From assembly GCA_937863685.1 (NCBI GenBank), contig CALMGM010000009.1, positions 178,403 through 242,402 on the forward strand: DNA of 64,000 nt. Reading direction: 5' to 3'. The stretch's first letter is position 1. Every line of letters starts with the position of its first letter. The notes beneath the pieces are model-generated. The model worked only from the letters and a program-made list of their open reading frames with translations. It searched no databases and was not told the DNA's origin. Of this stretch, positions 1,915 through 63,285 are shown one piece after another. This DNA is from an uncultured bacterium (GTDB lineage: Bacteria; Edwardsbacteria; AC1; EtOH8). The translations under genes and the position numbers were made by a program.

Positions 1915-2046
1915 GCAAAACCTCCTTGGCAAACGGACATGTTTTATTGAAACATGACGTATATTTGGGTTAATAGATTATCAGTTAAAACCTTAATATA
2001 TATGATTTTACCGTAAAAGGCCCGGACTTGTCAAGGAATAAGAAAG

Positions 2047-3246: not shown

Positions 3247-3292
3247 ATCCTCTGATTTGCAAGACCTTTTGTCCTGGTTTCTTGAATTAACT

Positions 3293-4165: not shown

Positions 4166-5105
4166 CGTGATCCCGGCGTTTCAATGTCTTAAAAGAAAGC
4201 ATATGCCAGGTCACGCCGGCCGCGATCAGGAATAAAACAACTCTGACCATAAGAAGCTTAATGACACACAAGGCCGCAAAGGTTATGGTGATCCACAAAA
4301 CCGAGATCGACAGTATCTTTAATTTTAGCGGAATACCGCGGCGTTCCCGGTAATTCCTTATATAATTACCAATCCACCGATTATTTAAAAGCCAGCCATA
4401 GAACCTCTGCGAGCTTCTGGCATAAAGGAATGCCGCCAACAGCAGGAACGGCGTGGTGGGCAGCAGCGGCAGGAATATGCCCAAGATGCCCAGCCCGACA
4501 GAGACGGTGCCTGCAATCACCAAGATTATTCTCAAAATTTTGCTATCGGTTTTTTGTTTCATTACGGTGCTTTTTGAACCATATTTTTCGATTTCACTCA
4601 TCATTTTTTGGGCGATTTCTGCCGGCGAGTCCGCAGAGAATATCTTTATGTCGCCCAGTTCTTTGTATTTAGGATACCTACGATTGAATTTATTTATTTC
4701 CGTTTCCTCCGTATATCCCAGCCCTCGTTCAAGCTGACGTTTAACGACGATATCGGCGCTTTTCTCCAATGATTCCGAAGGAAGCAGTAAAATTGACACC
4801 CCCTGCTCTCTCACAGTTTTAATATGTTCTCCCGCCAAGCCTTCTCCGCTATCGTATGCAAAAAATCCCGAAGACAATACGAATACGCAATCCGGGTGGA
4901 TCTTTTCTAAAATTTCATAAAATAACCGGGAATTATCCAGGCAATATCTTTCATAGCCCTGTTCATTTATGTAATCATCGATATTGCCGAGTTTATTGAT
5001 GAATTCCTCATCCAGATCAATGGACTCGCATCCCAGCTTATTAGCCAATAGCCTGCCGCAGGTTGTTTTACCCACACCGCCAGGGCCAATGATAAATATT
5101 TTCAT
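4158..5105 (-). CDS. Fusion protein: N-terminal shikimate-kinase/CPT/TmrB-like P-loop kinase domain plus C-terminal DUF454 (YbaN-like) membrane domain
   Basis: The N-terminus MKIFIIGPGGVGKTTCGRLLANKLGCESIDLDEEF aligns by eye with AroK ([30 protein letters not shown]). The C-terminus ILRIILVIAGTVSVGLGILGIFLPLLPTTPFLLLAAFLYARSS...RERRGIP is DUF454-like with 3-4 TM helices. Confidence 0.55.
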   Translation of the reverse strand: MKIFIIGPGGVGKTTCGRLLANKLGCESIDLDEEFINKLGNIDDYINEQGYERYCLDNSRLFYEILEKIHPDCVFVLSSGFFAYDSGEGLAGEHIKTVREQGVSILLLPSESLEKSADIVVKRQLERGLGYTEETEINKFNRRYPKYKELGDIKIFSADSPAEIAQKMMSEIEKYGSKSTVMKQKTDSKILRIILVIAGTVSVGLGILGIFLPLLPTTPFLLLAAFLYARSSQRFYGWLLNNRWIGNYIRNYRERRGIPLKLKILSISVLWITITFAALCVIKLLMVRVVLFLIAAGVTWHMLSFKTLKRRDHDG

Positions 5106-24505: not shown

Positions 24506-26836
24506 TTATTTTAGCTTGACGATCTTCCTGGTCTCATCCCCGTCCCTGCTTGATAATCTTACGAAATATATTCCGGCAGATACGGCCTGGCCCTTACTAC
24601 TTTTCCCGTCCCAATTCAAGGTGTATGTCCCAGGATCCAGGACTCCACTTTGTTCTATGCTGACCAGTCTGCCCAGAATGTCATATATCCGGAGTTCTGT
24701 TAAACCGCGGGATGCCACGTTATATCTTATGGTTGTTTTTTCCCTAAGGGGATTGGGCCAGACATCTAATCTTAAAGAAAGATTTTTAGGGTCTTCCCCT
24801 GCATTCTTGTCCTCCACTCCCAAGGCCGGGTTGGTCAGAAAACCCCTGATCAGCGAATCGCACTGAGGGCTGATCCCGGCGCCTCCGGTGTAATAAAGAC
24901 AATATCCGGAACCGCTGCCGCAATATACCCCAGCCAGGATTGTATTCACTGCCCCCAACCTAGCAACCCGCACCCCATTGGCCCCCAGCCCTGACAACCT
25001 CCCAAAGCCCGAAACCGCCGTTCCAATCGTATCATTCGTCTGGATGCCGCTAACTCCAAACGGTTGATCGTACGTCGCAACGATAGCTATGCCAGCGCCA
25101 GTATAACTACTATAACCAGTGGCCCCTACCCAGCCGCTGATGGGTGTGATATTAGTGGTCCCGCAAAGTTCATACGGTGTCTGGCGGGTCAGCAATACCC
25201 GCCCCCCGGCCTCAATATACTGACGAATCGATGCCGTATCTTCGGGGGTTGCCCCATGTTCTATAACCATTGTCTGGTAGGTTGTCCCGTTGATCGGGGG
25301 AACGCTCCACAAGCTGTCCACCGATTCCCAGACGCCTTTCACCAACTCCATCATAGAATGGTCGCCGCCAACCACTGCCGCCTGCCCCGAACCCAGGACC
25401 CATAATGTAACGGTGGAGTCGGCATTCAAGGTATCCACCGAATCTGCAGCTGTAACAGTAATAGCAAACTGCCCGGGGGCCATATCAATTGAAGCTACAA
25501 CCTGTAGCGAACAAGAACCACTGGGATTGATATAGGGGGGATTGAAAATAAAACTGACCTGTCCTGCTTCCGGTTCAGGATTGACAGCCGCGCTGAGTTT
25601 TACCGTGCCGTGATAGTCATTATGTGAATCGATTGAAACCAAAATATTTTCGGTTCCGCCAGGGACAAGGGAGATGGCAATGGGCGTCATGCGTGGCCTG
25701 AAGTCGGGCATATTCTCCCACAGGAAAAGATCCCCCAGATCCTCAGACCCGGAAACAATATCGAGATCCCCATCCAGGTCAATATCATCTGCCTCCAGCG
25801 CCCAGCCGCGTCCGAAATCGCTTCGAAGCACCATCGGGGTCCAGCTAAAACTGTCGTTCCGGAATACGGACAATTCTCCCGGGATCATCCCCACTGCCGC
25901 AATGTCCAGATCGCCGTCGCCGTCAAGATCGCCGCCCCGGACATTCACCGCCCCGCCCAGCTGGTCCGTGACGGTATGTTTTATCCATTGGTTCGCTGCC
26001 AGGTCCTGACAAAGCCAGTATGCTACCTCCTGACATTCGGCACCGGCGGCAATTATATCGAAGAGGCTGTCTCCGTCCATGAGCACCGGCATGGCTATCT
26101 GGGCCCCAGCGAAATCAGAGTTTATTACATGTTCCTCCCAATTTACCGGATCCCCGCCCAGGTTATTCCACCAACAGATCGTATTGGCAGTCTCGGCCGC
26201 CCCGATAACATCTAGATCTCCGTCCCGGTCAATATCGTGAATTGTCACTGTTTTGGCTCCGGCCAAGCTGTCGCATAATGAATACTCCGTCCAGCCCGGG
26301 GTCTCAGCACCGTCGTTATAGAATACCGAAATAGCACCGGGATATGAACTGACCCCTACTACGTCTGTGTGCCCGTCGGCGTTGATGTCAGCGCACATAG
26401 CATCGTGCGCGCCGTAGGGATATCCTATCACCCGTTTGGTCCAGCCTTCAGTTGGGTCGCCGCTGTTCTGCCACCACTCGATCTTGCCCTTATACAATTC
26501 CGTGGCGACGATATCGGGAAAGGTATCATTGTTGATATATGCGATTTCGACCGACATAGCATCATTTATTGCAACATCCACCGTAAACCGCGTCCATTTT
26601 ATGGGATGTCCGCCATCGTTTTTCCACCAGTAAATGCCTGTGCCCGGTATCTCAGTGCCGCCAATGATATCTTTGTCGCCGTCACGGTCAAGGTCAAAGA
26701 TTTTTATGCATGAGATACCCGGGACGTCAAGATCGATGGGCTGCTCAACCAAAGATATGGTTTGGGCCCCGGCAAAATGAAATGATAAAGCCAGGTAAAG
26801 CCAGCCCATTACTATGCTGGTTATGATTCTTTTCAT
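24506..26836 (-). CDS. Secreted FG-GAP/VCBS-repeat protein with T9SS C-terminal sorting domain
   Basis: Signal peptide MKRIITSIVMGWLYLALSFHFAGA. Repeated DxDxDGxxD Ca-binding FG-GAP units (DLDRDGDKDIIGG, DINADGHTDVVG, DIDRDGDLDVIG, GDLDGDGDLDIAAVG). C-terminal VWPNPLREKTTIRYNV...LRIYDILGRLV sorting domain. Confidence 0.7.
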   Translation of the reverse strand: MKRIITSIVMGWLYLALSFHFAGAQTISLVEQPIDLDVPGISCIKIFDLDRDGDKDIIGGTEIPGTGIYWWKNDGGHPIKWTRFTVDVAINDAMSVEIAYINNDTFPDIVATELYKGKIEWWQNSGDPTEGWTKRVIGYPYGAHDAMCADINADGHTDVVGVSSYPGAISVFYNDGAETPGWTEYSLCDSLAGAKTVTIHDIDRDGDLDVIGAAETANTICWWNNLGGDPVNWEEHVINSDFAGAQIAMPVLMDGDSLFDIIAAGAECQEVAYWLCQDLAANQWIKHTVTDQLGGAVNVRGGDLDGDGDLDIAAVGMIPGELSVFRNDSFSWTPMVLRSDFGRGWALEADDIDLDGDLDIVSGSEDLGDLFLWENMPDFRPRMTPIAISLVPGGTENILVSIDSHNDYHGTVKLSAAVNPEPEAGQVSFIFNPPYINPSGSCSLQVVASIDMAPGQFAITVTAADSVDTLNADSTVTLWVLGSGQAAVVGGDHSMMELVKGVWESVDSLWSVPPINGTTYQTMVIEHGATPEDTASIRQYIEAGGRVLLTRQTPYELCGTTNITPISGWVGATGYSSYTGAGIAIVATYDQPFGVSGIQTNDTIGTAVSGFGRLSGLGANGVRVARLGAVNTILAGVYCGSGSGYCLYYTGGAGISPQCDSLIRGFLTNPALGVEDKNAGEDPKNLSLRLDVWPNPLREKTTIRYNVASRGLTELRIYDILGRLVSIEQSGVLDPGTYTLNWDGKSSKGQAVSAGIYFVRLSSRDGDETRKIVKLK

Positions 26837-26966
26837 GATTCTCCTCTCTTTTAAATTTATTTTATTATAACAATGAAAAGGACAAACGTTTGTTTGTATT
26901 TTTATCTTAAAAATATGCCGTTTTATCGGCTTGATCAAGGATTTTATTAATGCACGGATACGCTCC

Positions 26967-27698
26967 CTATCCTCTACTTCCTGACTGCATTTTATCCCTG
27001 CTCAAAGTATCCTGTTTTACTTTCTTTAGCAAAGATCCGCCTTTTTGTATCGCCGATTTATCAATTGCCGGCGACATGCCCTGTATCAGAATGTCAACGA
27101 AAGTGAAGTATAGTTCCTCCCGTTTGGCCGCAGATAAACCATTTTTCATCATGATCTCATTTAAGTTAGCACGCAATGAAAGATAAATGTATGAAAGTGT
27201 CCACCATAGATCCAGGCCGCCACGCACCGTTCCCTCTTGCTGAGCCTGTTTTAGGACCGCTTGCATATATTTTTCGGTGCGGTCATAATACTCTTTATGT
27301 TCGGCATAAAGCTTTTTATAGATATCCGCAAAATACAATCCCCGGAAGTCTATATAGATCAGCAAATGGAGATCGGTGGGGTGGCCCGCAAAATAGCTAT
27401 AGTAGGAACGGGAGAACGCCCAGAGCTTGTCGATTCCGGTGGGCATGGCATCCATTTGTCCCTGATGGCTGCCCCAACGTTCCTGAAAACGCTCCAGGTA
27501 GATGGCCACCAGTAATTCATCCTTGCTCGAAAAGTATGAATAAACTGTCTGTTTGGTATATTCGGACTTACGGGCGATCTCATCCATGGTCACGTTCAGA
27601 ACGCCCTTGGACTCCATCAATTCCCACGCTGCTTTCATGATGTCACGCCGCCGGATGCCAGCAATATCCTGCCGTCTTTGCTTTACTCCCATATTCAT
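26967..27698 (-). CDS. TetR/AcrR-family transcriptional regulator
   Basis: N-terminal HTH TMDEIARKSEYTKQTVYSYFSSKDEL. Confidence 0.65.
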   Translation of the reverse strand: MNMGVKQRRQDIAGIRRRDIMKAAWELMESKGVLNVTMDEIARKSEYTKQTVYSYFSSKDELLVAIYLERFQERWGSHQGQMDAMPTGIDKLWAFSRSYYSYFAGHPTDLHLLIYIDFRGLYFADIYKKLYAEHKEYYDRTEKYMQAVLKQAQQEGTVRGGLDLWWTLSYIYLSLRANLNEIMMKNGLSAAKREELYFTFVDILIQGMSPAIDKSAIQKGGSLLKKVKQDTLSRDKMQSGSRG

Positions 27699-27787
27699 AC
27701 CCTCAGTATTATTATTTAGACTTATAGTATGATATTTTTATTATTTTGTCAAGTGTTTTTTAATTATTTTTTTCTATCGCACTATAA

Positions 27788-27820
27788 ATAAAAAAAGCCC
27801 CTCGCTGTCGAGAGGCTTTC
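27788..27820 (-). terminator. Rho-independent terminator (minus strand) downstream of the beta-barrel gene
   Basis: On the minus strand, GCCTCTCG-ACAG-CGAGGGGC is followed by TTTTTTT. Confidence 0.65.
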
Positions 27821-27840
27821 GGGTCATTAAGATGTAATCT

Positions 27841-28503
27841 TTAAAAACCTTTTAATTCTATGGCTGCACCAAGGCCGATGCCAGACATATCGAGTTCCCG
27901 CTCCCAGCCGCCGTCCTCTTCGCGGGCAACAGTGGTGCCATTATAAGAGGCCTCCAACAGCAATGCGCTGCGCAGCCCCAGCCCGATCCTGGCTCCTCCC
28001 CTGACCCGCCAGCCGAAGCCGGTGTAAAGGCCGTCATCCGGGCCCTGGGTGATCTTATCAACGGCGATGGTGGTATCCTTGTAATCATAGGACACTTTGG
28101 CTAATCCCCACCCCAGGTCGCCCCCCAGATAGGGTTTTATCGCACCGCCGGCGGGGATGGTAATATTCAGACTAGCCCACAAGGGCAGATAAGTGACCTT
28201 ATGTTCGTAAAGCACCTTGACCATAGTCGTAGTGGTTATCCCGGTGGTGCTGGAGGTGTCAGCTTCTTGCTTCTCCTCGAAGCTTTTGCCGAAGTATTCC
28301 AGCCCCAATGATAGGTTGACCATATCGTCCACCGCATTTCCGACCCCCAGGCCCAGCAGAAGCCCGCCGTTGCCCTTCACCCCGGAGGGGTTATAATATC
28401 CACCCTTCAGCATTAGAACGCTGTTGGCAAAAGGCAGCATCCCGGCCGAAGCGGTTGCCGCCATAGAGATAACCACCAGTAGAATTATCGCGATTTTTTT
28501 CAT
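27841..28503 (-). CDS. Small outer-membrane beta-barrel protein (OmpW/OmpA-barrel-like)
   Basis: Signal peptide MKKIAIILLVVISMAATASA. Alternating hydrophobic beta-strand pattern. C-terminal ...AAIELKGF with terminal Phe. Confidence 0.55.
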   Translation of the reverse strand: MKKIAIILLVVISMAATASAGMLPFANSVLMLKGGYYNPSGVKGNGGLLLGLGVGNAVDDMVNLSLGLEYFGKSFEEKQEADTSSTTGITTTTMVKVLYEHKVTYLPLWASLNITIPAGGAIKPYLGGDLGWGLAKVSYDYKDTTIAVDKITQGPDDGLYTGFGWRVRGGARIGLGLRSALLLEASYNGTTVAREEDGGWERELDMSGIGLGAAIELKGF

Positions 28504-28528
28504 AATATTCCCATCTGATCTTTTTTGA

Positions 28529-28729
28529 TTAAATATTCTGTTCGGCAAGTGCTAGGCAGGATACCGGGCAGGCATCTACGCAGGCCCCACATTCGGTACA
28601 GGCCGCGGCCTTGACCACTACCGCCTTGTCCGACGGCATCTCCAGCACGCTGGTGGGACAGGCCGAAACGCAGGCCCCGCAGCCGATGCAGGCCTCAATA
28701 TCAATCTTGGGATATGTTTTCTTGGGCAT
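28529..28729 (-). CDS. 2x[4Fe-4S] ferredoxin
   Basis: Two CxxCxxCxxxCP motifs (CIGCGACVSACP, CTECGACVDACP). Confidence 0.8.
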   Translation of the reverse strand: MPKKTYPKIDIEACIGCGACVSACPTSVLEMPSDKAVVVKAAACTECGACVDACPVSCLALAEQNI

Positions 28730-33283: not shown

Positions 33284-34180
33284 CTACTTTCCCCCGATCA
33301 CTTTCACGACGGAACCGTTGGACAAGGAATGATGGCCGGCCACGATCAACTGCTCGCCGAGGGCCAGTCCCGACTTGATGGAACTGGTTTCACCCAAGTC
33401 GATATCTACTGTTACCGCACGCGCCACGGCGTTACCACCCTCCACCACGAATATTTGTGTTGCACCCTCACGCTGAAGTATGGCTGTGGTGGGAATTACG
33501 ATCCCCTTGAGATGGCGTTTGATATTGACGGTAGCCCGGGCATACATCCCGGGACGGATCTTAAGTCCGGGATTTCTGATAGCGATCTCGGCTTTGGCGG
33601 TCCGGCTTAGGTTGTCCACCGTGGGCGAGAGTTTTGATACCCAGCCGGTGAATTGCTGGTCCGGCCAGGCATCTATGGAAACCTTGGCCACCGCCCCCTT
33701 CTTTACTCTGGAGATTTCGACCTCGGGAACCTGCACCATCAATTTGACTTGGTGGTAGTCGGCGATCTGGAACAGAGGCTGGCCCGGGTTCACATGGGTG
33801 CCAGTGTCGAAGTACTTCTTGGTCATCCAGCCGGCAATTGGGGCGTCCAGGACGGCTTCTTTGAATTCCACCCCTATCTCGTCCCGGTCTATGGTGACCA
33901 CATTTTGCCCTTTATTTACCCAGTCGCCTTCTTCAAACAAGTATTTAATGATCTTGCCTGGGACCTTGGCCGGAACCTCGGTCTGGTTCTCAGCCAGTAT
34001 AGTGCCGGTGAGGTTCAGCGTCTCGTCATAGTCAGTGGGGGTAATTATCACTACCTCTACCGGTAATATAGCGACCTCGCCCTTGGTATTTTTCTTATTA
34101 AGTGTCACCTTTGTAATGCGATACCCGACCAGTATCACGAAAAGCGATAAAATTATAATTAAAAGTTTCTTGCCCTTCAT
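33284..34180 (-). CDS. RND periplasmic adaptor (membrane fusion protein, HlyD family)
   Basis: N-terminal TM anchor, biotinyl/lipoyl-like hairpin and beta-barrel segments. It sits directly adjacent to the RND pump gene. Confidence 0.85.
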   Translation of the reverse strand: MKGKKLLIIILSLFVILVGYRITKVTLNKKNTKGEVAILPVEVVIITPTDYDETLNLTGTILAENQTEVPAKVPGKIIKYLFEEGDWVNKGQNVVTIDRDEIGVEFKEAVLDAPIAGWMTKKYFDTGTHVNPGQPLFQIADYHQVKLMVQVPEVEISRVKKGAVAKVSIDAWPDQQFTGWVSKLSPTVDNLSRTAKAEIAIRNPGLKIRPGMYARATVNIKRHLKGIVIPTTAILQREGATQIFVVEGGNAVARAVTVDIDLGETSSIKSGLALGEQLIVAGHHSLSNGSVVKVIGGK

Positions 34181-34241
34181 GGCGTAATCTCTGCTCCTTA
34201 ATTTATTATATATTGTTTTGTTTTCCGGATCTGATTGATGA

Positions 34242-35588
34242 TTATTTAAGCGTGATTCCCGCTGCTTTTTCCAGCTTGGCCAGTGATACTAAATAATCGT
34301 GCACCGCCTGTATTCGGTTGGTCTGGGCCTGGGTCAGGGCCAGCTGGGCGTCCAGCACGTCCAGGTTGGTAGCCTGTCCGCTCTCGTAACGGGCCTGAGC
34401 TATCTTAAGGGCCTCCTGGGCCTGCTCCACCGATCTCTGTTGGGAGAATATTGTCTTTTCGCTGGCCTTCATGGTAAGGTATCCAGCCGTGACCTCCAGT
34501 TCTATCCAATCTTCCACCTGTTCCCTGGCCAAACGGATCTGATTCTGGTTGGCACGGGCCTCTCTTATCTTCCCTATGGAAGCACCACCATCAAACAGAC
34601 TCCAGCTGGCGGCAATCCCCACATCCCATGTCTTCTGCCATTTGTCAATATCCGTATAGCCCTGGCCCTTGTAGTAGGTATAATCTGCCAACAGACTTAT
34701 GGCAGGTTGATAGCCAGCAAAGGAGGTAAGCTTGGCTTTATCGACTATCTTTTGACGGAGTATGATCGATTTATATTCGGGCCTTGTTTCCAGTGCGGCT
34801 TTTTTCAAAGCGGCACTGTCCACTTCCACTGGCAGGTATTGCATGGAATCGGTGGGGATGATATCGCCGTTAAGATCCCGGTTCAAGTTCATGTTCAAGG
34901 CCTGCTTGGCCAAAGCCACCGCATTTTGAGTCTGGATCAGCCGGGGCTGCAGGTTTGATAGCTGTACTTCAGCCCGGAGCAGGTCATATTTAGAGACTAT
35001 GCCGTTCTGGTAAAGGGCTTTGACACGGTCCACGTGCTTTTGGATTGAGGTCACAGCCTCTTGAGTGACCTGGTTGAAACTTTGAGCCAGCAACAGGTCG
35101 TAATAGGCCTGCTTGACATCAAACACCACCTTGGCCTGGCAACTGTCGTAGGACTGTAGTGAGATGTCCCTGCTCAATTTGGTGATCTGATATCCCTGCC
35201 AGACCCTGCCTCCAGTATAAATCGGCCAGATGGCCGAAAGCTTTCCGGCATAGGCATTGCCCACCCTGTCAGCGCTGACGGACCCGGAAGGAACCACATC
35301 GCCGGTGGGGGCAAAGGTGGTTCCATCCAACACCGGCAGAAAGGAGACGCTGGTGTTATATAGGTTGCTCATACGCATGGCGCTGCCGGAAACGGAAAGC
35401 CCTGGCACCAAGCTCCCCCGGACCGTCGTCACTTGGGCCTGTGAGGCGGCTACCCTGTATTTTACACCCTGCAGTCCGGCATTCTGCTTCAGGGCCAAAT
35501 TTACTGCCTGCTGCAGCGAATATTCCTCGGCCATCAAACCGGCTGAACCAGCAAGGACAACCAAACAAATTGATAAAATTCTTTTCAT
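34242..35588 (-). CDS. TolC-family outer-membrane efflux channel
   Basis: Signal peptide and duplicated OEP repeats (LSLQQAVNLALKQNAGLQ...). Confidence 0.85.
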   Translation of the reverse strand: MKRILSICLVVLAGSAGLMAEEYSLQQAVNLALKQNAGLQGVKYRVAASQAQVTTVRGSLVPGLSVSGSAMRMSNLYNTSVSFLPVLDGTTFAPTGDVVPSGSVSADRVGNAYAGKLSAIWPIYTGGRVWQGYQITKLSRDISLQSYDSCQAKVVFDVKQAYYDLLLAQSFNQVTQEAVTSIQKHVDRVKALYQNGIVSKYDLLRAEVQLSNLQPRLIQTQNAVALAKQALNMNLNRDLNGDIIPTDSMQYLPVEVDSAALKKAALETRPEYKSIILRQKIVDKAKLTSFAGYQPAISLLADYTYYKGQGYTDIDKWQKTWDVGIAASWSLFDGGASIGKIREARANQNQIRLAREQVEDWIELEVTAGYLTMKASEKTIFSQQRSVEQAQEALKIAQARYESGQATNLDVLDAQLALTQAQTNRIQAVHDYLVSLAKLEKAAGITLK

Positions 35589-35605
35589 TTATATTCCCTT
35601 ATTTG

Positions 35606-36268
35606 TTAATTTCTAGTTTTAATACCGTCTAGTAACAGATTAGTTATTAATGTAATGTTGTCTGTGTTGTAGATTTTTTTCCTGTTCATGAATGAGTTGA
35701 TCGCAACGCCATGACAAAGGCTGAAAATTGCTATGGCTACCTGATTTGGATTCAACGCATGGAATTGGTTCAATTCAATCCCATGGGCAATATGCTCTGA
35801 TACCATATTTACCATCTTCTGATAATGTCGGCGGAACCGAGATTTAACAATACCATCAGCGCACGTGGTTACCGCCAATTGCTCCCGATTCATCAACCGA
35901 AGTAAATCAATGTTCTGGTCGAATATCTGTAGCATGGTCACCACCAGAAGGGCGATTGTCTGGTCGGGCGTTATATCTTGAATCAGCACGTCCTTTATCT
36001 TCTCTCTGAAATTGATCATTTCCTCCTCCACCACCGAGATGAACAAATTCTCCTTGCTCGAAAAATAACCGTAAAGCGTTCCCTTGGCAAACTCGGCCTT
36101 CTCGGCTATCTCGTCCAGGGTGGCTGCATGTAGACCTTTTTGGGCAAACACTTCCCGGGCAGCCTTAAGTATATCCTTTTTTTTAACTTGCCGTTCCCGT
36201 TCTTTACGGGATGCCACACCTGTTGTGTTTTTCACATTTGTCATACTTTTATCCTTGATGATTTTCAT
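35606..36268 (-). CDS. TetR-family regulator heading the efflux gene set
   Basis: HTH TLDEIAEKAEFAKGTLYGYFSSKENLF. Confidence 0.8.
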   Translation of the reverse strand: MKIIKDKSMTNVKNTTGVASRKERERQVKKKDILKAAREVFAQKGLHAATLDEIAEKAEFAKGTLYGYFSSKENLFISVVEEEMINFREKIKDVLIQDITPDQTIALLVVTMLQIFDQNIDLLRLMNREQLAVTTCADGIVKSRFRRHYQKMVNMVSEHIAHGIELNQFHALNPNQVAIAIFSLCHGVAINSFMNRKKIYNTDNITLITNLLLDGIKTRN

Positions 36269-36298
36269 GTGTCTCTCTACCTTTCATCATTTCCAAAC

Positions 36299-37276
36299 CT
36301 ATTTACATATTGTTTTTAGATTTAAACATTCTACCGCATTCTGTTTTTTTGCATCCCACGTTCTATTCCACCAGACTGCCAAAAGAATTGCAAACCCACC
36401 ATGTATGAAACCAGCCAATATGTCAACCAAATAATGATATGCTCCAAAAAGAGTTGACAATAAAAGCAAGACCGTAGTTATAATGAACGGAAGCGACCAC
36501 CATTTGATGTACCGCACCATGAATATACAAATGACCAGGGAACCTGCAGCATGACCGGAGGGGAAAGCACCTCCGCAATATGCCGTGCCAGATATGAAAG
36601 CGCTTATTTGATGTGTCACCCATCCACCGTTAAGTTTTAAATACCGCCACACCTCAAAACGCGGACTATGAGCAGGCAACAACATAAACCACAAATATGT
36701 GCCATACAAAGCCGCTATTATCCCCAAGCGCAGGTTGGCAAATGCCCTAAGAAGTTTCTTAAGATATAAAATAAGGCTGCTGCTGAAAATCATTACAAAA
36801 AATGAGCAGTAGGAAAGCTGCATAAGATCGGTAAACCTGACGGAGGCCCCTCTTTGCAGTATCCTTACCGGGTCGTCACCGATCAGCCAGACATCGAATT
36901 GGTTGAGTAATCCGTCCAGATTCCAGGCAAAAATAGCATGAATGAAATCGCCTGCCCAGTGATAGGTGACTGGCAAAGTGGCAATGGGGTACCAGTCGGA
37001 AGCTATGGCAAGGATCCTGCCGGGAAACCTTACGGTCAAATATCTTAAAATGATTATCGCTGCCAGCGCCGCAGTATGCCGCAACGCCACCACTTGGTAA
37101 GCGGAAATATTATGATGAAAGACCAGCGCCGAAAGGACCATCAGGAATTCGTAACCGGCGATAAACCAATCTACCGGCCTGAATATTTTTATGAATTTCC
37201 CTGATATTCCCGGAAAACATTTACCACTCGTCGTTAATCTCCTATTTGAAGCAAATCTGAATGGCATGCAGCCCAT
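36299..37276 (-). CDS. PAP2-superfamily membrane phosphatase/phosphotransferase
   Basis: PSGH (GAFPSGHAAGS) and SRxxxxxHxxxD-like (YHYLVDILAG) acid-phosphatase motifs in a multi-TM protein. Confidence 0.6.
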   Translation of the reverse strand: MGCMPFRFASNRRLTTSGKCFPGISGKFIKIFRPVDWFIAGYEFLMVLSALVFHHNISAYQVVALRHTAALAAIIILRYLTVRFPGRILAIASDWYPIATLPVTYHWAGDFIHAIFAWNLDGLLNQFDVWLIGDDPVRILQRGASVRFTDLMQLSYCSFFVMIFSSSLILYLKKLLRAFANLRLGIIAALYGTYLWFMLLPAHSPRFEVWRYLKLNGGWVTHQISAFISGTAYCGGAFPSGHAAGSLVICIFMVRYIKWWSLPFIITTVLLLLSTLFGAYHYLVDILAGFIHGGFAILLAVWWNRTWDAKKQNAVECLNLKTICK

Positions 37277-56346: not shown

Positions 56347-58227
56347 TTACTTTACCAGGACCGCCAGGTAGATAACCAGCAGGGCGAATCCCCCCACCAC
56401 CCAGGCCAGATAATTGGCGTAAAGCCCGTTGTGGTATTCCTTGAGCACCCCGGTGGCCACCCCGCCGACGAAGACGATCAGCCTTTCGTAGACGGCGTCT
56501 ATCCCCCGGTCCACCACCTTGAACACCGTCCAGGCGGCGCCCTTCAGCAGGCCGTTTACGAACCACTCGTAGATGTCGAAGGCCCGGGCCTCGGCCCAGT
56601 CATACAGGGTATGCATCACCGGCAGGTTATGGATGGGCTCGGAGGCCAGGTAGGCCTGGCCCTGGCCCTTCTTGACGCCGTACTGGTGGATCAGCCAGGC
56701 GATCACCAGGCAGGCCATGGAGACCCAGACTATCCAATTGAGATGGAATACCCAGAACTCCATATGCCCGGCGTGGCCCTCCAGGATGGCCCTTCCCTCC
56801 AGCACCGGCTGGATCAGGTATTTTAAGGGCAGTTTGCTGTAGACCCCGAACAGGATGCAGCCCAGGGCGATCACCAGCATGGGGATGGTCATGGCCAGGC
56901 CGGGATCCTTGGGAGCCTTGTTGGGCATCTCGGAACTCTGCTGTCCGAAGTAGGTGGCGTGGCCCAGCTTTAAAAACGAGGCGAAGGTGAAGATGGCGCC
57001 GATCCAGGCGGCTATGGGGAATATCATTTTGCCGGTCTCCACCGCCCCGTGGAACACCAGCTCCTTGGAGAAGAAGCCGTTGAAGGGCGGCACCCCGGAG
57101 ATGGCGAAGGCCGCCACCCAGAAGGCCACCCCGGTGATGGGCATCAGCTTGAACAGCCCGCCCAGTTTTTTAAGCTCGGTGGTGCCGGCCTGCTTCTCCA
57201 CCGCCCCGCCGGTCAGGAACAGGGTGCACTTGTACATGGCGTGGTTGAGCATGTGGAACAGGCCGCCCACGATCCCGGCCGGTACCCCGGTGCCGATGCC
57301 TAGGATCATGTAGCCCACCTGGCTGATGGCGTGGAACGACAGTAATTTTTTGTAATCCTTCTGGACCAGGGCCATCATCACCGCCAGAACTATGGTGATG
57401 GCGCCGATGGCCATCAAAAAGATGGACATGGAGCTGTTCATGTGGATGGTGAACATTTCAAGGGAGATCCGGCCCAGCATGTAGATGCCCAGCAGTTTCT
57501 CCAGGGCCGCCGGCAGGTAGGCCATGAACGGCAGCGGCGCGTCGATGGCGGCGTCCGGGATCCAGGTGTGGAAAGGCATGGCGCCGGCCTTGGCCATGGC
57601 CCCCAGGCCCATCAGCACGAAGGCGGCCGCCCCCAGACCCATCGGCTCCAGGTGGATCTCGGACATGGTCAGGGTGCCGGACAGATGCCAGGCGAAGATG
57701 ATGCCCAGTATCATGGCGAAATCGGCGATGCCGGAGATCACCAAAGCCTTGGTGGCGGTCTTGAAGGCCTCCTTGTTGCCTATTGAGATCATGCCGTAGA
57801 GGGTCGCTAATAGCGACTCCCAGAAGAACAGCATTAATACGAAATTATTTGAAAGGATGGCTCCGTTGGCCAGCCCGGCGGTCAGCAGGAAGTAGGCAAA
57901 ATATTCCTTGGAGCGTTCCTTGCCGTCCATGAAGGAGGCGGTGTAGAGGGCCAAGAGGATCTCGAAACCGGCCGCCGCCAGCAGGATGAACTTGGGAAAG
58001 TGGTAGGCCCATAGGTCAAAGTTTATCCCGAAGCTGGTCCAGGGCACGAATAATCTTAAACCCTCGCCCCCGGCCTTGAAGATGACCGCCGCATAGTACA
58101 TGGTGATGGCGGTGGCGATCAGGGCCAGGATCTCCTTGCCCCATTTGACGGATTTGGGCAGGATGAAGGTCAGCACCCCGGCGATGATGGGGACCAGGAT
58201 CGGTATCAGCAGAATGTTCGGATTCAT
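56347..58227 (-). CDS. NuoL/MnhA-like antiporter-type subunit (longest member)
   Basis: 626 aa. The NuoL-like length and TM pattern include a C-terminal extension. Confidence 0.75.
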   Translation of the reverse strand: MNPNILLIPILVPIIAGVLTFILPKSVKWGKEILALIATAITMYYAAVIFKAGGEGLRLFVPWTSFGINFDLWAYHFPKFILLAAAGFEILLALYTASFMDGKERSKEYFAYFLLTAGLANGAILSNNFVLMLFFWESLLATLYGMISIGNKEAFKTATKALVISGIADFAMILGIIFAWHLSGTLTMSEIHLEPMGLGAAAFVLMGLGAMAKAGAMPFHTWIPDAAIDAPLPFMAYLPAALEKLLGIYMLGRISLEMFTIHMNSSMSIFLMAIGAITIVLAVMMALVQKDYKKLLSFHAISQVGYMILGIGTGVPAGIVGGLFHMLNHAMYKCTLFLTGGAVEKQAGTTELKKLGGLFKLMPITGVAFWVAAFAISGVPPFNGFFSKELVFHGAVETGKMIFPIAAWIGAIFTFASFLKLGHATYFGQQSSEMPNKAPKDPGLAMTIPMLVIALGCILFGVYSKLPLKYLIQPVLEGRAILEGHAGHMEFWVFHLNWIVWVSMACLVIAWLIHQYGVKKGQGQAYLASEPIHNLPVMHTLYDWAEARAFDIYEWFVNGLLKGAAWTVFKVVDRGIDAVYERLIVFVGGVATGVLKEYHNGLYANYLAWVVGGFALLVIYLAVLVK

Positions 58228-59693
58228 CTCAATACCCCCAATATATCATGAATGGCAGGATTTCCCAGAACGTCGCGGACGGCGATATTGGCCAGGTCCA
58301 TGGGGTATTTCACCAGGATCCCGGCGGCCAGCGAAAGGACGGCCAGCGAGGCCACCACCCACACCATGGTCGGGGTGCCCTCCTTGTGGGCATGAATGCT
58401 GGTATCGCGGGCTTCGCCCAGAAAGACCAGGGTGAACAGCCGCATTAAATAGACCAAGGTCAGCAGGGCGGTGAAGATGGCCAGGGCGCCGATGGCGATG
58501 TGGTTGGACTTGATGATGCCCTGGATGACCATGAACTTGGAGAAGAAGCCTCCGAAGGGCGGCACGCCCACGATGGAGAAGACGCACATGATGAAGGCCA
58601 CCGCGGTGACGGGCATGGCCTTGATCAGCCCGCCCATCTTGGTGATGTCCTTGGTGCCGGTGCCGTGCTCGATGACCCCGGCGGCCAAAAAGAGTCCGCC
58701 CTTGGCCAGTCCGTGCATCAGGATGAAAAGCAGGGCTCCGGCCACCCCGATGGTGTTGAAGGCCGCCAGGCCCATGAAGATGTAGCCGATTTGGCTGACG
58801 GTGGACAGGGCCAAAATTCTCTTTATATTCGTTTCGATCAGGGCCGCGCTGGCCGAGACCATGGCCGAGATCAGGCCCAGTATCATCAGGTAGGTCTGCC
58901 AGTCGCCGGGGATGACGAAGGTGTAGTTGAATATCCGGGCGAAGGCGTAGACCCCGATCTTGACCAGCACCGCGGCGTGCAGCAGGGCGGTCACCGGGGT
59001 GGGCGCCACGCCGGCGTCAGGCAGCCAGGTGTGGAACGGCAAAGTGGCGCTCTTGGCGAAGATGCCCATGGTGATCAGGGCCACCGCCAGTCCGCCGATG
59101 GGGAAGCCGCGCATGTCCAGCATGTTGAAGGTGCCGGTCTTGGCATAGACCAGGGCGAAGCCCAGCAGCATGAACACCGCTCCCCCGGCCGTCACCAAAA
59201 AGGCCTTGTCGGCCTTGATCACCACTTCCTTGTCGCGGAAGAAGCCGATCAAACGCCAGGAACAGATGCCGGTGATCTCCCAGAAGACGTACATCAGGAT
59301 CAGGTTGGCCGAGAATACCAGCCCCATCATGGCTCCCAAAAACAAAACCACCATCAGAAAGTATTCCTGCTGATAGTGGTAATCCTTGATATAACCCAGG
59401 GAGTAGATGATGATCAGGGTGCTGATCAGGGCCGAGGCGATGGCCATGAAGACCGACAGCCCGTCCACCACGAAGGTGGCATCCACCCCCAGCCCGATGG
59501 CCCTCTGGAAGACGTGGGTCTCCCCCGAGAAGGCCGCCGGCAGAAGCGTGACGGCAAAAAAAGTAGTGGCCAGCCCCAGAATCACCGCCCAGGCGTTACG
59601 CCCTGGCTTGGAGGCCAGCCCTATCAAAGGCAAGGTAAAGGCCCCGATGATGGGGACCAGTATCGTTGCCAGCAAAGAGAATTCCCACCCCAT
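58224..59693 (-). CDS. NuoM/MnhD-like antiporter-type subunit, first gene of the operon
   Basis: 489 aa. Its 4-nt overlap with the next gene indicates translational coupling. Confidence 0.75.
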   Translation of the reverse strand: MGWEFSLLATILVPIIGAFTLPLIGLASKPGRNAWAVILGLATTFFAVTLLPAAFSGETHVFQRAIGLGVDATFVVDGLSVFMAIASALISTLIIIYSLGYIKDYHYQQEYFLMVVLFLGAMMGLVFSANLILMYVFWEITGICSWRLIGFFRDKEVVIKADKAFLVTAGGAVFMLLGFALVYAKTGTFNMLDMRGFPIGGLAVALITMGIFAKSATLPFHTWLPDAGVAPTPVTALLHAAVLVKIGVYAFARIFNYTFVIPGDWQTYLMILGLISAMVSASAALIETNIKRILALSTVSQIGYIFMGLAAFNTIGVAGALLFILMHGLAKGGLFLAAGVIEHGTGTKDITKMGGLIKAMPVTAVAFIMCVFSIVGVPPFGGFFSKFMVIQGIIKSNHIAIGALAIFTALLTLVYLMRLFTLVFLGEARDTSIHAHKEGTPTMVWVVASLAVLSLAAGILVKYPMDLANIAVRDVLGNPAIHDILGVLR

Positions 59694-59737
59694 AAAAACT
59701 CCTAATGCTGATGTATTAAATTAAATGGAAACAAGAT

Positions 59738-59766
59738 ATTTTACAATAAATGGCCCGGCATGTCAA
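59738..59766 (-). promoter_or_regulatory. Consensus sigma70 promoter (TTGACA-N17-TAAAAT, minus strand) ~40 nt upstream of the hydrogenase operon start
   Basis: The + strand shows ATTTTA (59738-59743) and TGTCAA (59761-59766). Confidence 0.6.
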
Positions 59767-59880
59767 GGGTAAATTATCCGGCGCATTTTAGGGGTGGGCA
59801 ACAATTAGTGGTATTAAAGAGTGCTTAATGGCACTATCTGTAGTGGCAAACTTGCTTAATTACAGTTGTACCTGCATTAA

Positions 59881-59900
59881 CCCAGGCCTTAAGGCCTGGG
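59881..59900. promoter_or_regulatory. Perfect 20 bp palindrome CCCAGGCCTTAAGGCCTGGG upstream of the hydrogenase promoter. Further palindromes at 59921-59932 and 59979-60005.
   Basis: Read directly from the sequence. Confidence 0.5.
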
Positions 59901-60026
59901 TTATAAAACAGACGAAACCTAGCCTTTCGGCTAACTCACCCCGGTCATTCCCCTTCGCCTTAATATATAGCCATGACCTTCCCCTCTCTTTTAAAGAGAG
60001 GGGAATAAAAGGGGTGAGTTAAATAT

Positions 60027-60050
60027 AAAACCCCGCCTTTCGGCGGGGTT
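60027..60050 (-). terminator. Hairpin AAAACCCCGCCTTTCGGCGGGGTT downstream of gene 60067-61050. The same hairpin recurs at 61131 and 61573.
   Basis: Perfect 8 bp GC-rich stem. The sequence is identical at three sites. Confidence 0.6.
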
Positions 60051-60066
60051 ACTGCGGAAGAATGCA

Positions 60067-61050
60067 CTATTTATCCCGTGTTTTGTAAAATTGTTCGAAC
60101 ATCTTTTTTGCGGTTTTCGATTTTACAAGAGGCACCTCTGTGACTAATGGTTTGATGGCTGAAAAAAATGTAACGAGACGATAGCCTATAAGTGGGGAAT
60201 CGGTGCCTTCTGTCCGCTTATACTTACCATTGTAATAAATGTCTAGTGAGTATTTCGGTCCGGTTGAATCGTAAGTATCTTTTTTAAAGCGCATCCTATC
60301 AAGAGAACTGGTTTTTAACAGGTCTATAAAACGCCTATACAGTGAATCGCTCAAACAACCCTGATAATATCCCTGTTTCAATGCGTTTTTGTTGCCATAC
60401 TTATAAAGGCCCCATAATTGCATTGCGAATTTATTTCCATATAAATACATGGTTTTAGTGCTGTCAATTATTATCCTTAGGTCCCTTTCTATGAGCTTGC
60501 CTTGGGGTAAATATATCCCCCCTGTGTTGCCGCTTCCTATCGTCCCACCAGTGCCCTGTAGCCTGTTATGTTCGCAAAATAATAATCGGTCGAAAGAAAA
60601 TAATGTATCTTTTAAAATAGAGTATAGGGTTATCGTACGAGTACTATCAAATAAGTACCCGTCCTCAACAGCATGTCTATATTGCTTCCACTTGCTGTTG
60701 CGATAGGGACGGAGAACAAGCGAATCTGGATTCTGGTGTTCGATGATAAAGCAAACACCTATAGTATCAGCCGGTTGAAGATTATCTTCCGACATCGTGT
60801 CTGACAGGGATTGTGCCAGGCTACCCCCTCGTATCAAACGGGGCGTGAATAATTCCAGGCTATCCTCCCTCAAGGTATAATTAAACACATTCCAGTCGGT
60901 GCTGAAATCAAAAAATGCTACCGTATCAACAATGCGAAGGCTTTCAGAACTATTGCCCACCCAAAACCCTAAAATCGTATTTGCGTCCCTGGCGCCTGTC
61001 GCAATAGAAGTCAGCGAGACGCATAACGCAATAGTAAGAAATATTTTCAT
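60067..61050 (-). CDS. Secreted hypothetical protein in a low-GC island
   Basis: Signal peptide MKIFLTIALCVSLTSIATGA. No recognisable domain. Visibly A+T-rich codon usage. Confidence 0.5.
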   Translation of the reverse strand: MKIFLTIALCVSLTSIATGARDANTILGFWVGNSSESLRIVDTVAFFDFSTDWNVFNYTLREDSLELFTPRLIRGGSLAQSLSDTMSEDNLQPADTIGVCFIIEHQNPDSLVLRPYRNSKWKQYRHAVEDGYLFDSTRTITLYSILKDTLFSFDRLLFCEHNRLQGTGGTIGSGNTGGIYLPQGKLIERDLRIIIDSTKTMYLYGNKFAMQLWGLYKYGNKNALKQGYYQGCLSDSLYRRFIDLLKTSSLDRMRFKKDTYDSTGPKYSLDIYYNGKYKRTEGTDSPLIGYRLVTFFSAIKPLVTEVPLVKSKTAKKMFEQFYKTRDK

Positions 61051-61098
61051 AAGGCCCCCTTGTGATCTAAATCATGCCGAATGGCATTGCTTAATTAG

Positions 61099-61160
61099 CA
61101 TACCAAAACCAACTTCCGTCTGTCAACCAGAAACCCCGCCTTACGGCGGGGTTTTGTTGC
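61099..61160. repeat. ~60 nt repeat module (CATACCAAAAC...TGTCAACCAGAAACCCCGCCTTACGGCGGGGTT) ending in the shared hairpin. Second copy at 61541-61598.
   Basis: The two copies are ~80% identical across ~55 nt. Confidence 0.65.
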
Positions 61161-61178
61161 TTATATTTAACTATCATT

Positions 61179-61445
61179 TCATTTACTACAATATAAATAA
61201 TATAACAAAAACATTTGGAATAAACCCAATAAAATCAAAATAACTCCACCTATTTTTTTAGATTTAAAATTACTGGCTTGCGCTTTCATGTGATTTTTCT
61301 CATACATATCAAACCACCACTTAGGAGTCCTGTTTTTTAATAATTTCCGTTGTCCCTCAAAATAACTATTAGGTATGAACATAAAGCCAATACCCAAAAC
61401 TATCATTATGATTGAATATATGAATAGCTTAATATTTACAGACAT
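61179..61445 (-). CDS. Small two-TM membrane protein, hypothetical, low GC
   Basis: 88 aa with two hydrophobic helices (IIMIVLGIGFMFI, GGVILILLGLFQMFLLYYL). Confidence 0.4.
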   Translation of the reverse strand: MSVNIKLFIYSIIMIVLGIGFMFIPNSYFEGQRKLLKNRTPKWWFDMYEKNHMKAQASNFKSKKIGGVILILLGLFQMFLLYYLYCSK

Positions 61446-61540
61446 ATTTAAAACACCTAAATAAGTTTATGGAGTGTCCACTGTCGTTACATATAACACG
61501 TTTCCAAGCGCAATAATTTTGATAGTTAAACATTTTGAAT

Positions 61541-61598
61541 CATACCAAAACAATCCTCTACCTGTCAACAAGAAACCCCGCCTTTCGGCGGGGTTTCT
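61541..61598. repeat. Second copy of the ~60 nt repeat/terminator module, also serving as the groEL terminator
   Basis: CATACCAAAACAATCCTCTACCTGTCAACAAGAAACCCCGCCTTTCGGCGGGGTTTCTTCTG. Confidence 0.65.
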
Positions 61599-61635
61599 TC
61601 TGAATTCAATATTCTAAATTCGGTATTCCCGGATA

Positions 61636-63285
<1,650 letters not shown>

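Follow-up and report, generated by a model that had tools for sequence, protein, structure and literature searches.

The 64-kb stretch of DNA analysed here (the whole of which is called the window; contig CALMGM010000009.1 of an uncultured Edwardsbacteria bacterium) raises the question of what kind of locus is represented by the AT-rich gap between the chaperonin genes groES and groEL and a Mrp antiporter/membrane-bound hydrogenase (Mrp/Mbh) operon. All genes across 56-64 kb of the window are situated on the minus strand, and in the direction of transcription groES and groEL are followed by an open reading frame (ORF) of 88 amino acids (aa), an ORF of 327 aa, a non-coding stretch of approximately 370 nt and finally the Mrp/Mbh operon. 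In our judgement the gap is rather probably a hypervariable cassette array of Edwardsbacteria-like bacteria, of which the window is a two-cassette case, and serves as a store of orphan immunity genes. By sequence comparison, the locus displays a cassette organization, a module that is nearly restricted to this locus and a variable content between conserved flanks. On the same grounds, both window genes are homologous to genes adjacent to Rhs genes, and the module is found in an Rhs orphan array.

Three copies of the hairpin AACCCCGCCTTTCGGCGGGGTT punctuate the gap (Table 1), two of them perfect and one with a single mismatch. No further copies were detected in the 64-kb window with up to three mismatches allowed, at a chance expectation of 0. 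The initial annotation had listed all three copies, with start positions that are off by 1-2 nt, and had described a shared module of ~60 nt in two copies, which we recovered as a sequence of 56 nt with 86% identity at positions 61099-61154 and 61541-61596. On the coding (minus) strand this module consists of the hairpin, followed by TTGACA-N18-TATGAT or TATGCT (TTGACA-N18-TGnTATGMT), with a TG in front of the -10 hexamer. The three hairpins have perfect 9-13-bp stems, a 4-nt loop, folding energies of -18.8 to -27.9 kcal/mol (z = -4.4 to -5.8) and U-rich tails on the transcribed strand (UUUCUUGUUG, UUUCUGGUUG, and UUUUAUAUUU). Due to the combination of a GC-rich stem-loop and U-rich tract, as in intrinsic terminators, with -35 and -10 hexamers at a spacing of 17±1 nt that are conserved across sites, as in sigma-70-type promoters, the module is predicted to join the terminator of the gene upstream directly to the promoter of the one that follows. 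The same promoter type is located at the core operons, with TTGAAA-17-TATAAT before groES and TTGACA-17-TAAAAT before the Mrp operon.

Relatives of the locus occur on Candidatus Edwardsbacteria-like contigs; all comparison loci (L numbers; homologous proteins are given P numbers) are metagenome assemblies. In an alignment of 15 module copies from 10 contigs, the right hairpin arm GGCGGGGTTT, TTGAC, and TTTTGgTATgcT are invariant, the -35 hexamer and the TTTTGGTATGCT block are kept, and the 11-nt spacer as well as everything past the -10 hexamer is variable. Such a pattern would be expected if a terminator and a promoter were under selection. In the 21-kb relatives L001 and L002, all hairpin copies detected sit at the groEL|Mrp locus, and a 2.68-Mb contig contains exactly one match to the module pattern. 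Pattern scans of 185,579 species genomes and of JGI metagenome contigs returned only groEL|Mrp loci of this lineage and chance matches in unrelated bacteria; in case of the species-genome contigs these were one relevant metagenome-assembled genome (MAG) with two contigs and three chance matches. With the copies of the window, L001, and L002 confined to the locus, a generic terminator of the species, which the initial annotation had named as the finding that would speak against its island, does not account for the module. A genome-wide repeat similar to miniature inverted-repeat transposable elements (MITE) or repetitive extragenic palindromic (REP) sequences was rejected, because copies are limited to the groEL|Mrp locus and a single Rhs array. 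Likewise, an attC-like site was dismissed, on the hairpin structure and because no integrase was found. At gathering thresholds, no Rfam family was matched in the whole window. Among the copies of the window, L001, L002, and L024, the 4-nt loop of the terminator hairpin alternates between GAAA and TTTC and between GTAA and TTAC with stems that stay perfect, which suggests palindrome flipping or template switching.

The content of the locus differs from relative to relative. In L001 (annotated as Candidatus Edwardsbacteria), with flanking genes 93-97% identical to those of the window, groEL is followed by a module, a 322-aa paralogue, a second module, the 327-aa orthologue, a hairpin, and the Mrp operon. 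The slot of the 1,032-nt paralogue cassette in this near-conspecific relative is occupied in the window by the 88-aa cassette, which measures 382 nt from the -10 hexamer to the next hairpin. Single cassettes were observed in L002 (334 aa) and L022 (an 82-aa member of the 88-aa family, alone). L028 contains the 327-aa cassette, L012 a 191-aa lipoprotein, L016 an RDD-family membrane protein, L017 an exported protein of at least 233 aa, and L014 an NlpC/P60 protein and a lipoprotein. L024 carries a PD40 beta-propeller lipoprotein, HicB/HicA, and a 226-aa exported protein, and L010 and L011, which belong to one MAG, carry an 88-aa-like gene, a PD40-type gene, and, on L010, a 65-aa protein with two transmembrane (TM) segments. 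Except for the HicBA pair (52-53%), the cassette genes have a G+C content of 23-43% between flanks of ~60%, and most of their products are targeted to the envelope by a signal peptide, a lipoprotein signal, or TM segments. Altogether, in at least 10 contigs, no fewer than 10 gene families without relation to each other have this module ahead of them. Long-range homology to the relatives, followed from the groEL side, breaks off in every case at the -10 hexamer of the first module. At the other end, TCACCCC and a ~90-nt structured element come after the final hairpin of each array in place of a promoter. The island origin proposed initially becomes less likely for the 327-aa family, which is present at the same locus with similarly low G+C in relatives. 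Since the content differs between near-conspecific genomes, the notion of mobile cargo survives at the level of cassettes. The initial view of the region as cargo of foreign composition, with a repeated hairpin module specific to the locus as its punctuation, is supported.

Some details of these arrays are of interest in their own right. The HicB/HicA toxin-antitoxin pair of L024 (5469-5896, minus strand of the locus) forms one cassette behind a variant hairpin-promoter junction. In L014 (190-1235) the NlpC/P60 protein lacks a signal peptide and is followed by the 188-aa lipoprotein just before the terminal hairpin of the array; the two look like an amidase effector and its periplasmic immunity partner. 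The ends of L010 and L011 (positions 1-50 in both; MAG CALGNM01, SRR6007444_bin.93) consist of Illumina adapter inside the array, and the 88-aa-like gene of L011 is apparently frameshifted at homopolymers, as an assembly artefact or a pseudogene.

The 88-aa protein, described initially as a two-TM protein, indeed comprises two hydrophobic segments (residues ~5-26 and 64-86) around a basic loop (9 K/R vs 3 D/E). Its closest homologue P0008 is 75-76% identical at the protein level, and the DNA is 86% identical over 222 nt. On four contigs, the P0008 gene is located 34 nt downstream of a gene encoding a 1,718-aa RHS-repeat/YD-shell protein, which beyond its DPTGM cleavage motif has a C-terminal domain of ~240 residues that includes long hydrophobic stretches. 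P0010 and P0011, found by the family profile, are each situated 36 nt after an ORF with a C-terminus that is 67-76% identical to the P0008-linked toxin domain. Thus, three pairs of toxin C-terminus and small protein occur with a spacing of 34-37 nt, with toxin domains that are mutually 67-76% identical and small proteins that are 48-76% identical to the window protein. Judged from this covariation, the pairs carry the signature of a cognate immunity family. The initial proposal of the small membrane protein as an immunity protein gains weight from this pairing of its family with Rhs C-terminal toxins elsewhere.

Two subfamilies are distinguished, formed by the window protein and P0008 (75%) and by P0009 and P0010/P0011 (81-82%). 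Each of them holds both an Rhs-linked member and an orphan at the groEL locus, and the ribosome-binding region moves together with the gene. Due to this pairing of Rhs-linked and orphan members and to the ribosome-binding site travelling with the gene, we presume repeated capture or transfer. In L026 and L027, which are independent assemblies (two runs) of an Rhs-module junction, this same terminator-promoter module comes after the immunity gene, and behind it lies an orphan fragment of the Rhs core end (DFSARYYDPAIGRFYS). The homology that the window shares with L026 extends from the gene through the 3' flank into the module. With the module located behind the immunity gene of L026 and L027, it is therefore common to Rhs orphan arrays and the groEL locus. 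Rhs-like sequence was not detected in the 64-kb window by tblastn with the full Rhs protein and its C-terminal domain. The window genes thus adjoin no Rhs gene, whereas their homologues do occupy the position of cognate RhsI genes, and they are therefore regarded as orphans and not as cognate members. A truncated orphan Rhs core fragment (…VLNGGRTVTNYYGGGSLKIKK…) is also located downstream of P0008 at positions 10290-10375 of L003, which confirms the typical Rhs orphan arrangement in that organism.

Searches of domain libraries agree with the initial statement that neither protein has recognisable domains as far as curated thresholds are concerned: no match above threshold was obtained for either window protein against Pfam, NCBIfam, PADLOC, and PHROGs. 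Below these thresholds the statement does not hold, since the C-terminal part of the 327-aa protein probably represents a divergent DUF6438 domain and the 88-aa family is weakly similar to DUF6199 (PF19701; 17 bits for the window protein vs a gathering threshold of 27.7). To our knowledge, no function has been assigned to DUF6438 and DUF6199. No Pfam family was found for the two Rhs C-terminal toxin domains. The JGI name of P0008 (87 aa; L003-L006), putative Mn2+ efflux pump MntP, is not supported by domain searches, and its window homologue has only the weak DUF6199 similarity and no MntP match. Scans of viral contigs revealed no true relatives of the window proteins; two matches to the 88-aa profile were rejected as a spurious ITPKWW motif in a 533-aa helicase-like ORF.

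The 327-aa protein has a single N-terminal hydrophobic segment, a signal peptide, in agreement with its initial description as secreted. Its close relatives number only seven among 5.8 billion proteins, all of them from the Edwardsbacteria-like lineage, with a best match of 97% identity (Candidatus Edwardsbacteria); a homologue with 72% identity (P0003) is encoded on a 1.2-Mb contig. The family profile yielded 83 matches among 1.84 billion representative proteins, mostly to residues 220-310. Proteins matched with E = 1e-13 to 1e-8 score 57-68 bits on Pfam DUF6438 (PF20033), which is above threshold, and the window protein itself scores 13.2 bits (E = 0.11; gathering threshold 30 bits). By this transitive profile evidence, the C-terminal part is tentatively assigned to a divergent DUF6438 domain, and a likeness to both families stands beside the fact that the window proteins score below both gathering thresholds. 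A literature search found no published papers on DUF6438, and a profile search retrieved nothing from the PDB sequences.

With an alignment of 77 sequences, AlphaFold2 produced the model used here, with a predicted local distance difference test score (pLDDT) of 87 and a predicted template modelling score (pTM) of 0.81, whereas the family alignment of 8 sequences reached only pLDDT 33. The model consists of a lipocalin-like beta domain (residues ~28-116) and an alpha/beta domain. Foldseek searches of PDB and BFVD gave weak matches at the level of domains, Mago-nashi-like and Bacteroides lipocalin-like with template modelling scores of ~0.5, and no enzyme, toxin, or pore-forming fold among these matches. 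Compared to L001, the ratio of non-synonymous to synonymous codon differences is 10:12 for the 327-aa gene, 8:40 for groEL, and 3:52 for the first Mrp gene, which is consistent with relaxed or diversifying selection on the former.

A connection of the 327-aa family to Rhs is given by P0006 of L030, which is 61% identical to the window protein and encoded downstream of an Rhs-like ORF. Over its first 106 residues, this ORF shares 56% identity with the end of the Rhs core as far as DPTGM, and a different domain of ~190 residues follows. The leader and ribosome-binding sequence upstream of the window gene is also found before P0006, and with a family-consistent start codon the spacer to the Rhs-like ORF amounts to 236 nt. 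This single context is suggestive rather than conclusive for a link of the 327-aa family to Rhs. As the family-consistent start is MIKKTIF, the called start of P0006 (L030 961-2079) is probably 56 codons early. The P0006 spacer also holds a perfect 16-bp hairpin (GCAGGACGAGTTGCTG / CAGCAACTCGTCCTGC).

Under the orphan-immunity array reading, each cassette would consist of a sigma-70-type promoter, one AT-rich gene with its own leader, and a GC-rich hairpin terminator. The terminator of one unit would abut the promoter of the next in the repeated 56-60-nt module, with the first hairpin also ending groEL transcription. Provided that the hairpins terminate transcription and the promoters fire, these junctions would insulate each cassette from the chaperonin operon and its neighbours, so that cassettes would be transcribed singly. 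The 88-aa product is predicted to be a two-TM inner-membrane protein of a family that would serve as cognate immunity to a hydrophobic, probably membrane-acting Rhs C-terminal toxin, and the window gene would be an orphan copy with no toxin nearby. The exported 327-aa product is probably orphan immunity against a second Rhs C-terminal toxin that acts in the periplasm, which is less certain given its one context. Cassettes would be gained, lost, and swapped by homologous recombination with crossovers in the conserved flanks and in the terminator-promoter module, and the module inside the Rhs orphan array would link both kinds of loci. The likely net function would be a strain-specific protection from Rhs toxins delivered by competitors. 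It is tempting to speculate, more tentatively than for the array itself, that the locus represents a recombinase-independent analogue of integrons and of rAID arrays (recombinase-associated acquired interbacterial defence). The portable ~60-nt module would then act as both expression unit and homology handle, by which single immunity and other envelope-protein genes are copied from Rhs toxin arrays and stockpiled at a fixed depot between groESL and Mrp/Mbh.

The initial annotation had considered the 327-aa protein as a toxin and the 88-aa protein as its immunity partner, acquired together as an island with its own terminators. The adjacency, common orientation, and AT-richness of the two genes are in line with such a pair, as is the combination of an exported with a small membrane protein. 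However, both genes are distributed independently in relatives, the 327-aa family occurring without the 88-aa family in L001, L002, and L028 and the 88-aa family alone in L022, and within the window they are separated by a terminator and a promoter, so that each has its own. Moreover, covariation of the 88-aa family with Rhs C-terminal toxins is seen in three contexts elsewhere, the confident model of the 327-aa protein suggests no enzyme or pore-former fold, and its family member P0006 occupies the immunity position behind an Rhs C-terminal domain. The pair model is largely refuted by the independent distribution of both genes, and we give it hardly any credence. Hardly better placed is a role in envelope variation or phage resistance, by receptor masking, superinfection exclusion, or abortive infection via HicAB, instead of immunity to bacterial toxins. 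The envelope targeting of most cassette products and the HicAB pair of one array would agree with such a role, but the absence of PADLOC and PHROGs matches for the window proteins, the viral contigs without relatives, and the direct genomic linkage to Rhs toxin domains render it very improbable.

More has to be said for an ordinary accessory region, that is a permissive gap that collects AT-rich genes, in which the module is the groEL terminator with a local promoter, tandemly duplicated, and a link to toxin immunity does not exist. The tandem paralogues of L001 with their nearly identical modules fit duplication, many cassette families have no toxin link (PD40, RDD, HicAB, and unknowns), and the curated domain libraries yield no immunity annotation. 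We nevertheless regard this explanation as unlikely, considering that one and the same module stands before 10 or more gene families of no relation to each other, in at least 10 contigs, and also occurs within an Rhs orphan array, that homologues of both window genes are located directly behind Rhs C-terminal toxin domains, and that the Rhs-linked/orphan pairing in both 88-aa subfamilies implies repeated transfer. As a further alternative, the palindromic module could be the site of an integron-like or rAID-like system with a recombinase encoded elsewhere, its promoter-like conservation being secondary. A palindrome repeated at each boundary between cassettes, breakpoints whose position stays constant (behind GTTGAC or behind the -10 hexamer), and a hairpin loop that flips between reverse-complement forms are what such a system would leave behind, and repetitive intergenic motifs together with low-G+C, co-oriented orphan immunity genes are known from rAID-1 (10.1101/471110). 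Yet no recombinase gene was found within 10 kb on either side in L001 and L002 nor among 20 ORFs tested in the window, the blocks that are conserved fall on correctly spaced -35 and extended -10 elements, the short perfect stem is free of attC-like bulges, GTTGACA does not fit GTTRRRY, and an identical module of 56-60 nt has sufficient length for RecA-dependent exchange; a site-specific system is improbable in our view.

Several points weigh against the orphan-immunity array as well. Transcription, termination, toxicity, and protection are predicted from the sequence, and recombination at the module is inferred from the positions of breakpoints. The link between the 327-aa family and Rhs comes from a single short contig, on which the spacer measures 236 nt and includes a hairpin, and the gene could have come to lie behind an Rhs gene as an orphan and not be its cognate partner. 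Several cassette families of the relatives (PD40 lipoprotein, RDD, HicAB) are without a demonstrated link to interbacterial toxins, and the label of an immunity array may be too narrow for the whole locus. Many comparison contigs are short and break inside the array, where repeats can cause mis-joins, and the absence of Rhs applies to the 64-kb window and not to the genome it belongs to.

Among known systems, the closest counterpart is rAID-1 of the Bacteroidales, which is defined by a XerD-like recombinase, at least two co-directional genes of at most 41% G+C, repetitive intergenic motifs, and orphan immunity homologues (10.1101/471110; PMC12247911). Short co-oriented genes of low G+C (27% and 41% in the window), repetitive intergenic motifs (56 nt), and variation between strains are shared by both. 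In detail, the two window genes are both on the minus strand with G+C contents of 0.270 and 0.411, the 56-nt module occurs twice in the window, and homology to Rhs-linked immunity genes is indicated by three Rhs contexts for the 88-aa family and one for the 327-aa family. In contrast, a XerD-family tyrosine recombinase at the 5' end of the array is missing, with none within 10 kb in L001 and L002; recombinase families in general are absent among the called genes up to 10 kb on either side of both arrays and among the 20 window ORFs tested (235-450 aa). Further differences are the position of the array between the housekeeping operons groESL and Mrp/Mbh, a repeat that is a predicted terminator with a sigma-70-type promoter, linked toxins that are Rhs C-terminal domains of an uncultured lineage and not type VI secretion system (T6SS) effectors of Bacteroidales, and arrays of 1-4 genes vs up to 31. 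As every defining feature except for the recombinase is found, the locus appears to work like an acquired interbacterial defence (AID) array without being a member of rAID-1.

Orphan rhs-CT/rhsI modules are located downstream of full-length rhs genes, e.g., in Salmonella (PMC7043789), and orphan immunity genes have been described for Rhs loci of Serratia (PMC10539506). The locus resembles these in its homologous immunity genes and in C-terminal and immunity regions that are AT-rich compared to the core, and L026 and L027 carry a classic orphan fragment. It differs in that the window genes are detached from rhs, have no toxin fragment but their own promoter-terminator module, and reside at an unrelated chromosomal site. 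With integrons the locus shares single-gene cassettes, a repeated palindromic boundary element, a variable array, and a fixed chromosomal site. However, no IntI integrase was found near the array (L001, L002, and 20 window ORFs), attC sites measure 57-141 nt and are imperfect palindromes that contain extrahelical bases and have GTTRRRY as their core, whereas the stem is here a perfect one of 9-13 bp with a 4-nt loop, and each cassette has a promoter of its own instead of the common Pc of integrons. Due to the lack of IntI and of attC architecture, the locus is not considered an integron.

The orphan immunity arrays known so far are mainly those of gut Bacteroidales (AID and rAID) and those at proteobacterial loci that are attached to genes of T6SS, Rhs, or contact-dependent growth inhibition (CDI). 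If the orphan-immunity array reading is true, they extend to the uncultured lineage Candidatus Edwardsbacteria, in an array detached from any toxin locus or recombinase and with a simple route of acquisition, by recombination at a terminator-promoter module shared with Rhs orphan arrays. Should the recombinase-independent depot exist as well, strain-specific defence repertoires would arise in a candidate phylum without a dedicated recombination enzyme. Testable functions are thereby proposed for two unannotated families, the two-TM family with weak similarity to DUF6199 and the exported DUF6438-like family, paired with two uncharacterised Rhs C-terminal toxin domains, and the module would represent a compact natural insulator-plus-promoter part.

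Table 1. Features of the groEL|Mrp gap and its flanks in the window, in order of transcription.
Feature	Position	Strand	Evidence	Conservation in relatives
groES	63704-63399	-	ORF list	
groEL, conserved upstream flank of array	61636..63273	-	545-aa ORF	Orthologues in L001 and L002 with Cpn60_TCP1 domain; 97.1% nt identity to L001
Hairpin T1, predicted groEL terminator and first half of module copy 1	61570..61599	-	AAGAAACCCCGCC-GAAA-GGCGGGGTTTCTT, then U-rich tail; fold -27.9 kcal/mol, z = -5.8; AACCCCGCCTTTCGGCGGGGTT at 61574-61595, 0 mismatches	After groEL in L001, L002, L011, L012, L016, L017, L022, L024, L028
Predicted promoter P1 of 88-aa cassette	61539..61568	-	TTGACA-N18-TATGAT with upstream TG; 11/12 consensus	
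88-aa two-TM protein, putative orphan Rhs immunity	61179..61445	-	ORF and hydropathy; G+C 0.270	
Hairpin T2, predicted 88-aa cassette terminator and first half of module copy 2	61132..61153	-	Fold -23.2 kcal/mol, z = -5.6; AACCCCGCCTTTCGGCGGGGTT at 61132-61153, 1 mismatch	
Predicted promoter P2 of 327-aa cassette	61097..61126	-	TTGACA-N18-TATGCT with upstream TG; 10/12 consensus; ~40 nt conserved leader next	Module and leader in L001 (two copies), L002, L028
327-aa secreted protein, candidate periplasmic orphan immunity	60067..61050	-	ORF, signal peptide; G+C 0.411	
Hairpin T3, predicted terminal terminator of array	60029..60050	-	Fold -18.8 kcal/mol; terminator-like, tail TTATATTT; AACCCCGCCTTTCGGCGGGGTT at 60029-60050, 0 mismatches; then TTTAAC|TCACCCC, no promoter	Terminal junction in seven loci
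~90-nt structured element (SE), distal array boundary	59932..60021	-	Outer stem AACTCACCCC/GGGGTGAGTT around hairpin CCCCTCTCTTTAAAAGAGAGGGG; fold z = -7	L012, L022, L024; three copies in L029
Degenerate fourth T-hairpin copy (59919-59934), then hairpin AACCCAGGCCTTAAGGCCTGGGTT (59878-59903)	59878..59934	-	Repeat analysis; fold -21.5 kcal/mol	Hairpin pair in L001
Predicted Mrp/Mbh operon promoter, within downstream flank	59738..59766	-	TTGACA-N17-TAAAAT; 11/12 consensus	Sequence in L001, L002, L010
First Mrp antiporter/membrane-bound hydrogenase operon gene, conserved downstream flank	58224..59693	-	Proton_antipo_M E = 7e-71	Synteny in L001, L002, L010, L022, L024

The genes upstream of the array are a radical-SAM gene, groES, and groEL, and the Mrp/Mbh operon is located downstream. 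The low-G+C stretch with two genes next to groEL that had been described initially is borne out by windowed G+C: positions 59694-61635 have a G+C content of 0.391 and thus form the lowest 1.9-kb stretch of the 64-kb window, which has a median of 0.544. In windows of 300 nt, values of 0.26-0.47 across 59650-61600 compare to ~0.60 on either side. At third codon positions, the 88-aa ORF has a G+C content of 0.30 and the 327-aa ORF one of 0.42, vs 0.82-0.91 for groES, groEL, and the Mrp genes. The AT-rich stretch is therefore real, but its extent had been drawn too narrowly, since it begins at ~59694, directly after the start of the Mrp gene, and takes in the ~370 nt of structured non-coding DNA.

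In this non-coding zone, the SE has no Rfam match, and no covariation support was obtained for it because the four sequences are too similar to each other. Another palindromic element, GTTACTTTCTTATGACTAAGAAAGTAAC, is absent from the window and is situated between the array and the Mrp promoter in L001 (11090-11130), L012 (~1023-1060), and at the 3' end of L029.

The hairpin module is absent from the three other stretches of the window with a G+C content below average (0.43-0.47 vs a median of 0.54), which are located at ~2000-5000, 25300-28700, and 33800-36500. Genes in these stretches include those of an APH-family kinase, a TetR regulator, an outer-membrane protein (OMP) beta-barrel, and outer-membrane efflux and PAP2 proteins.

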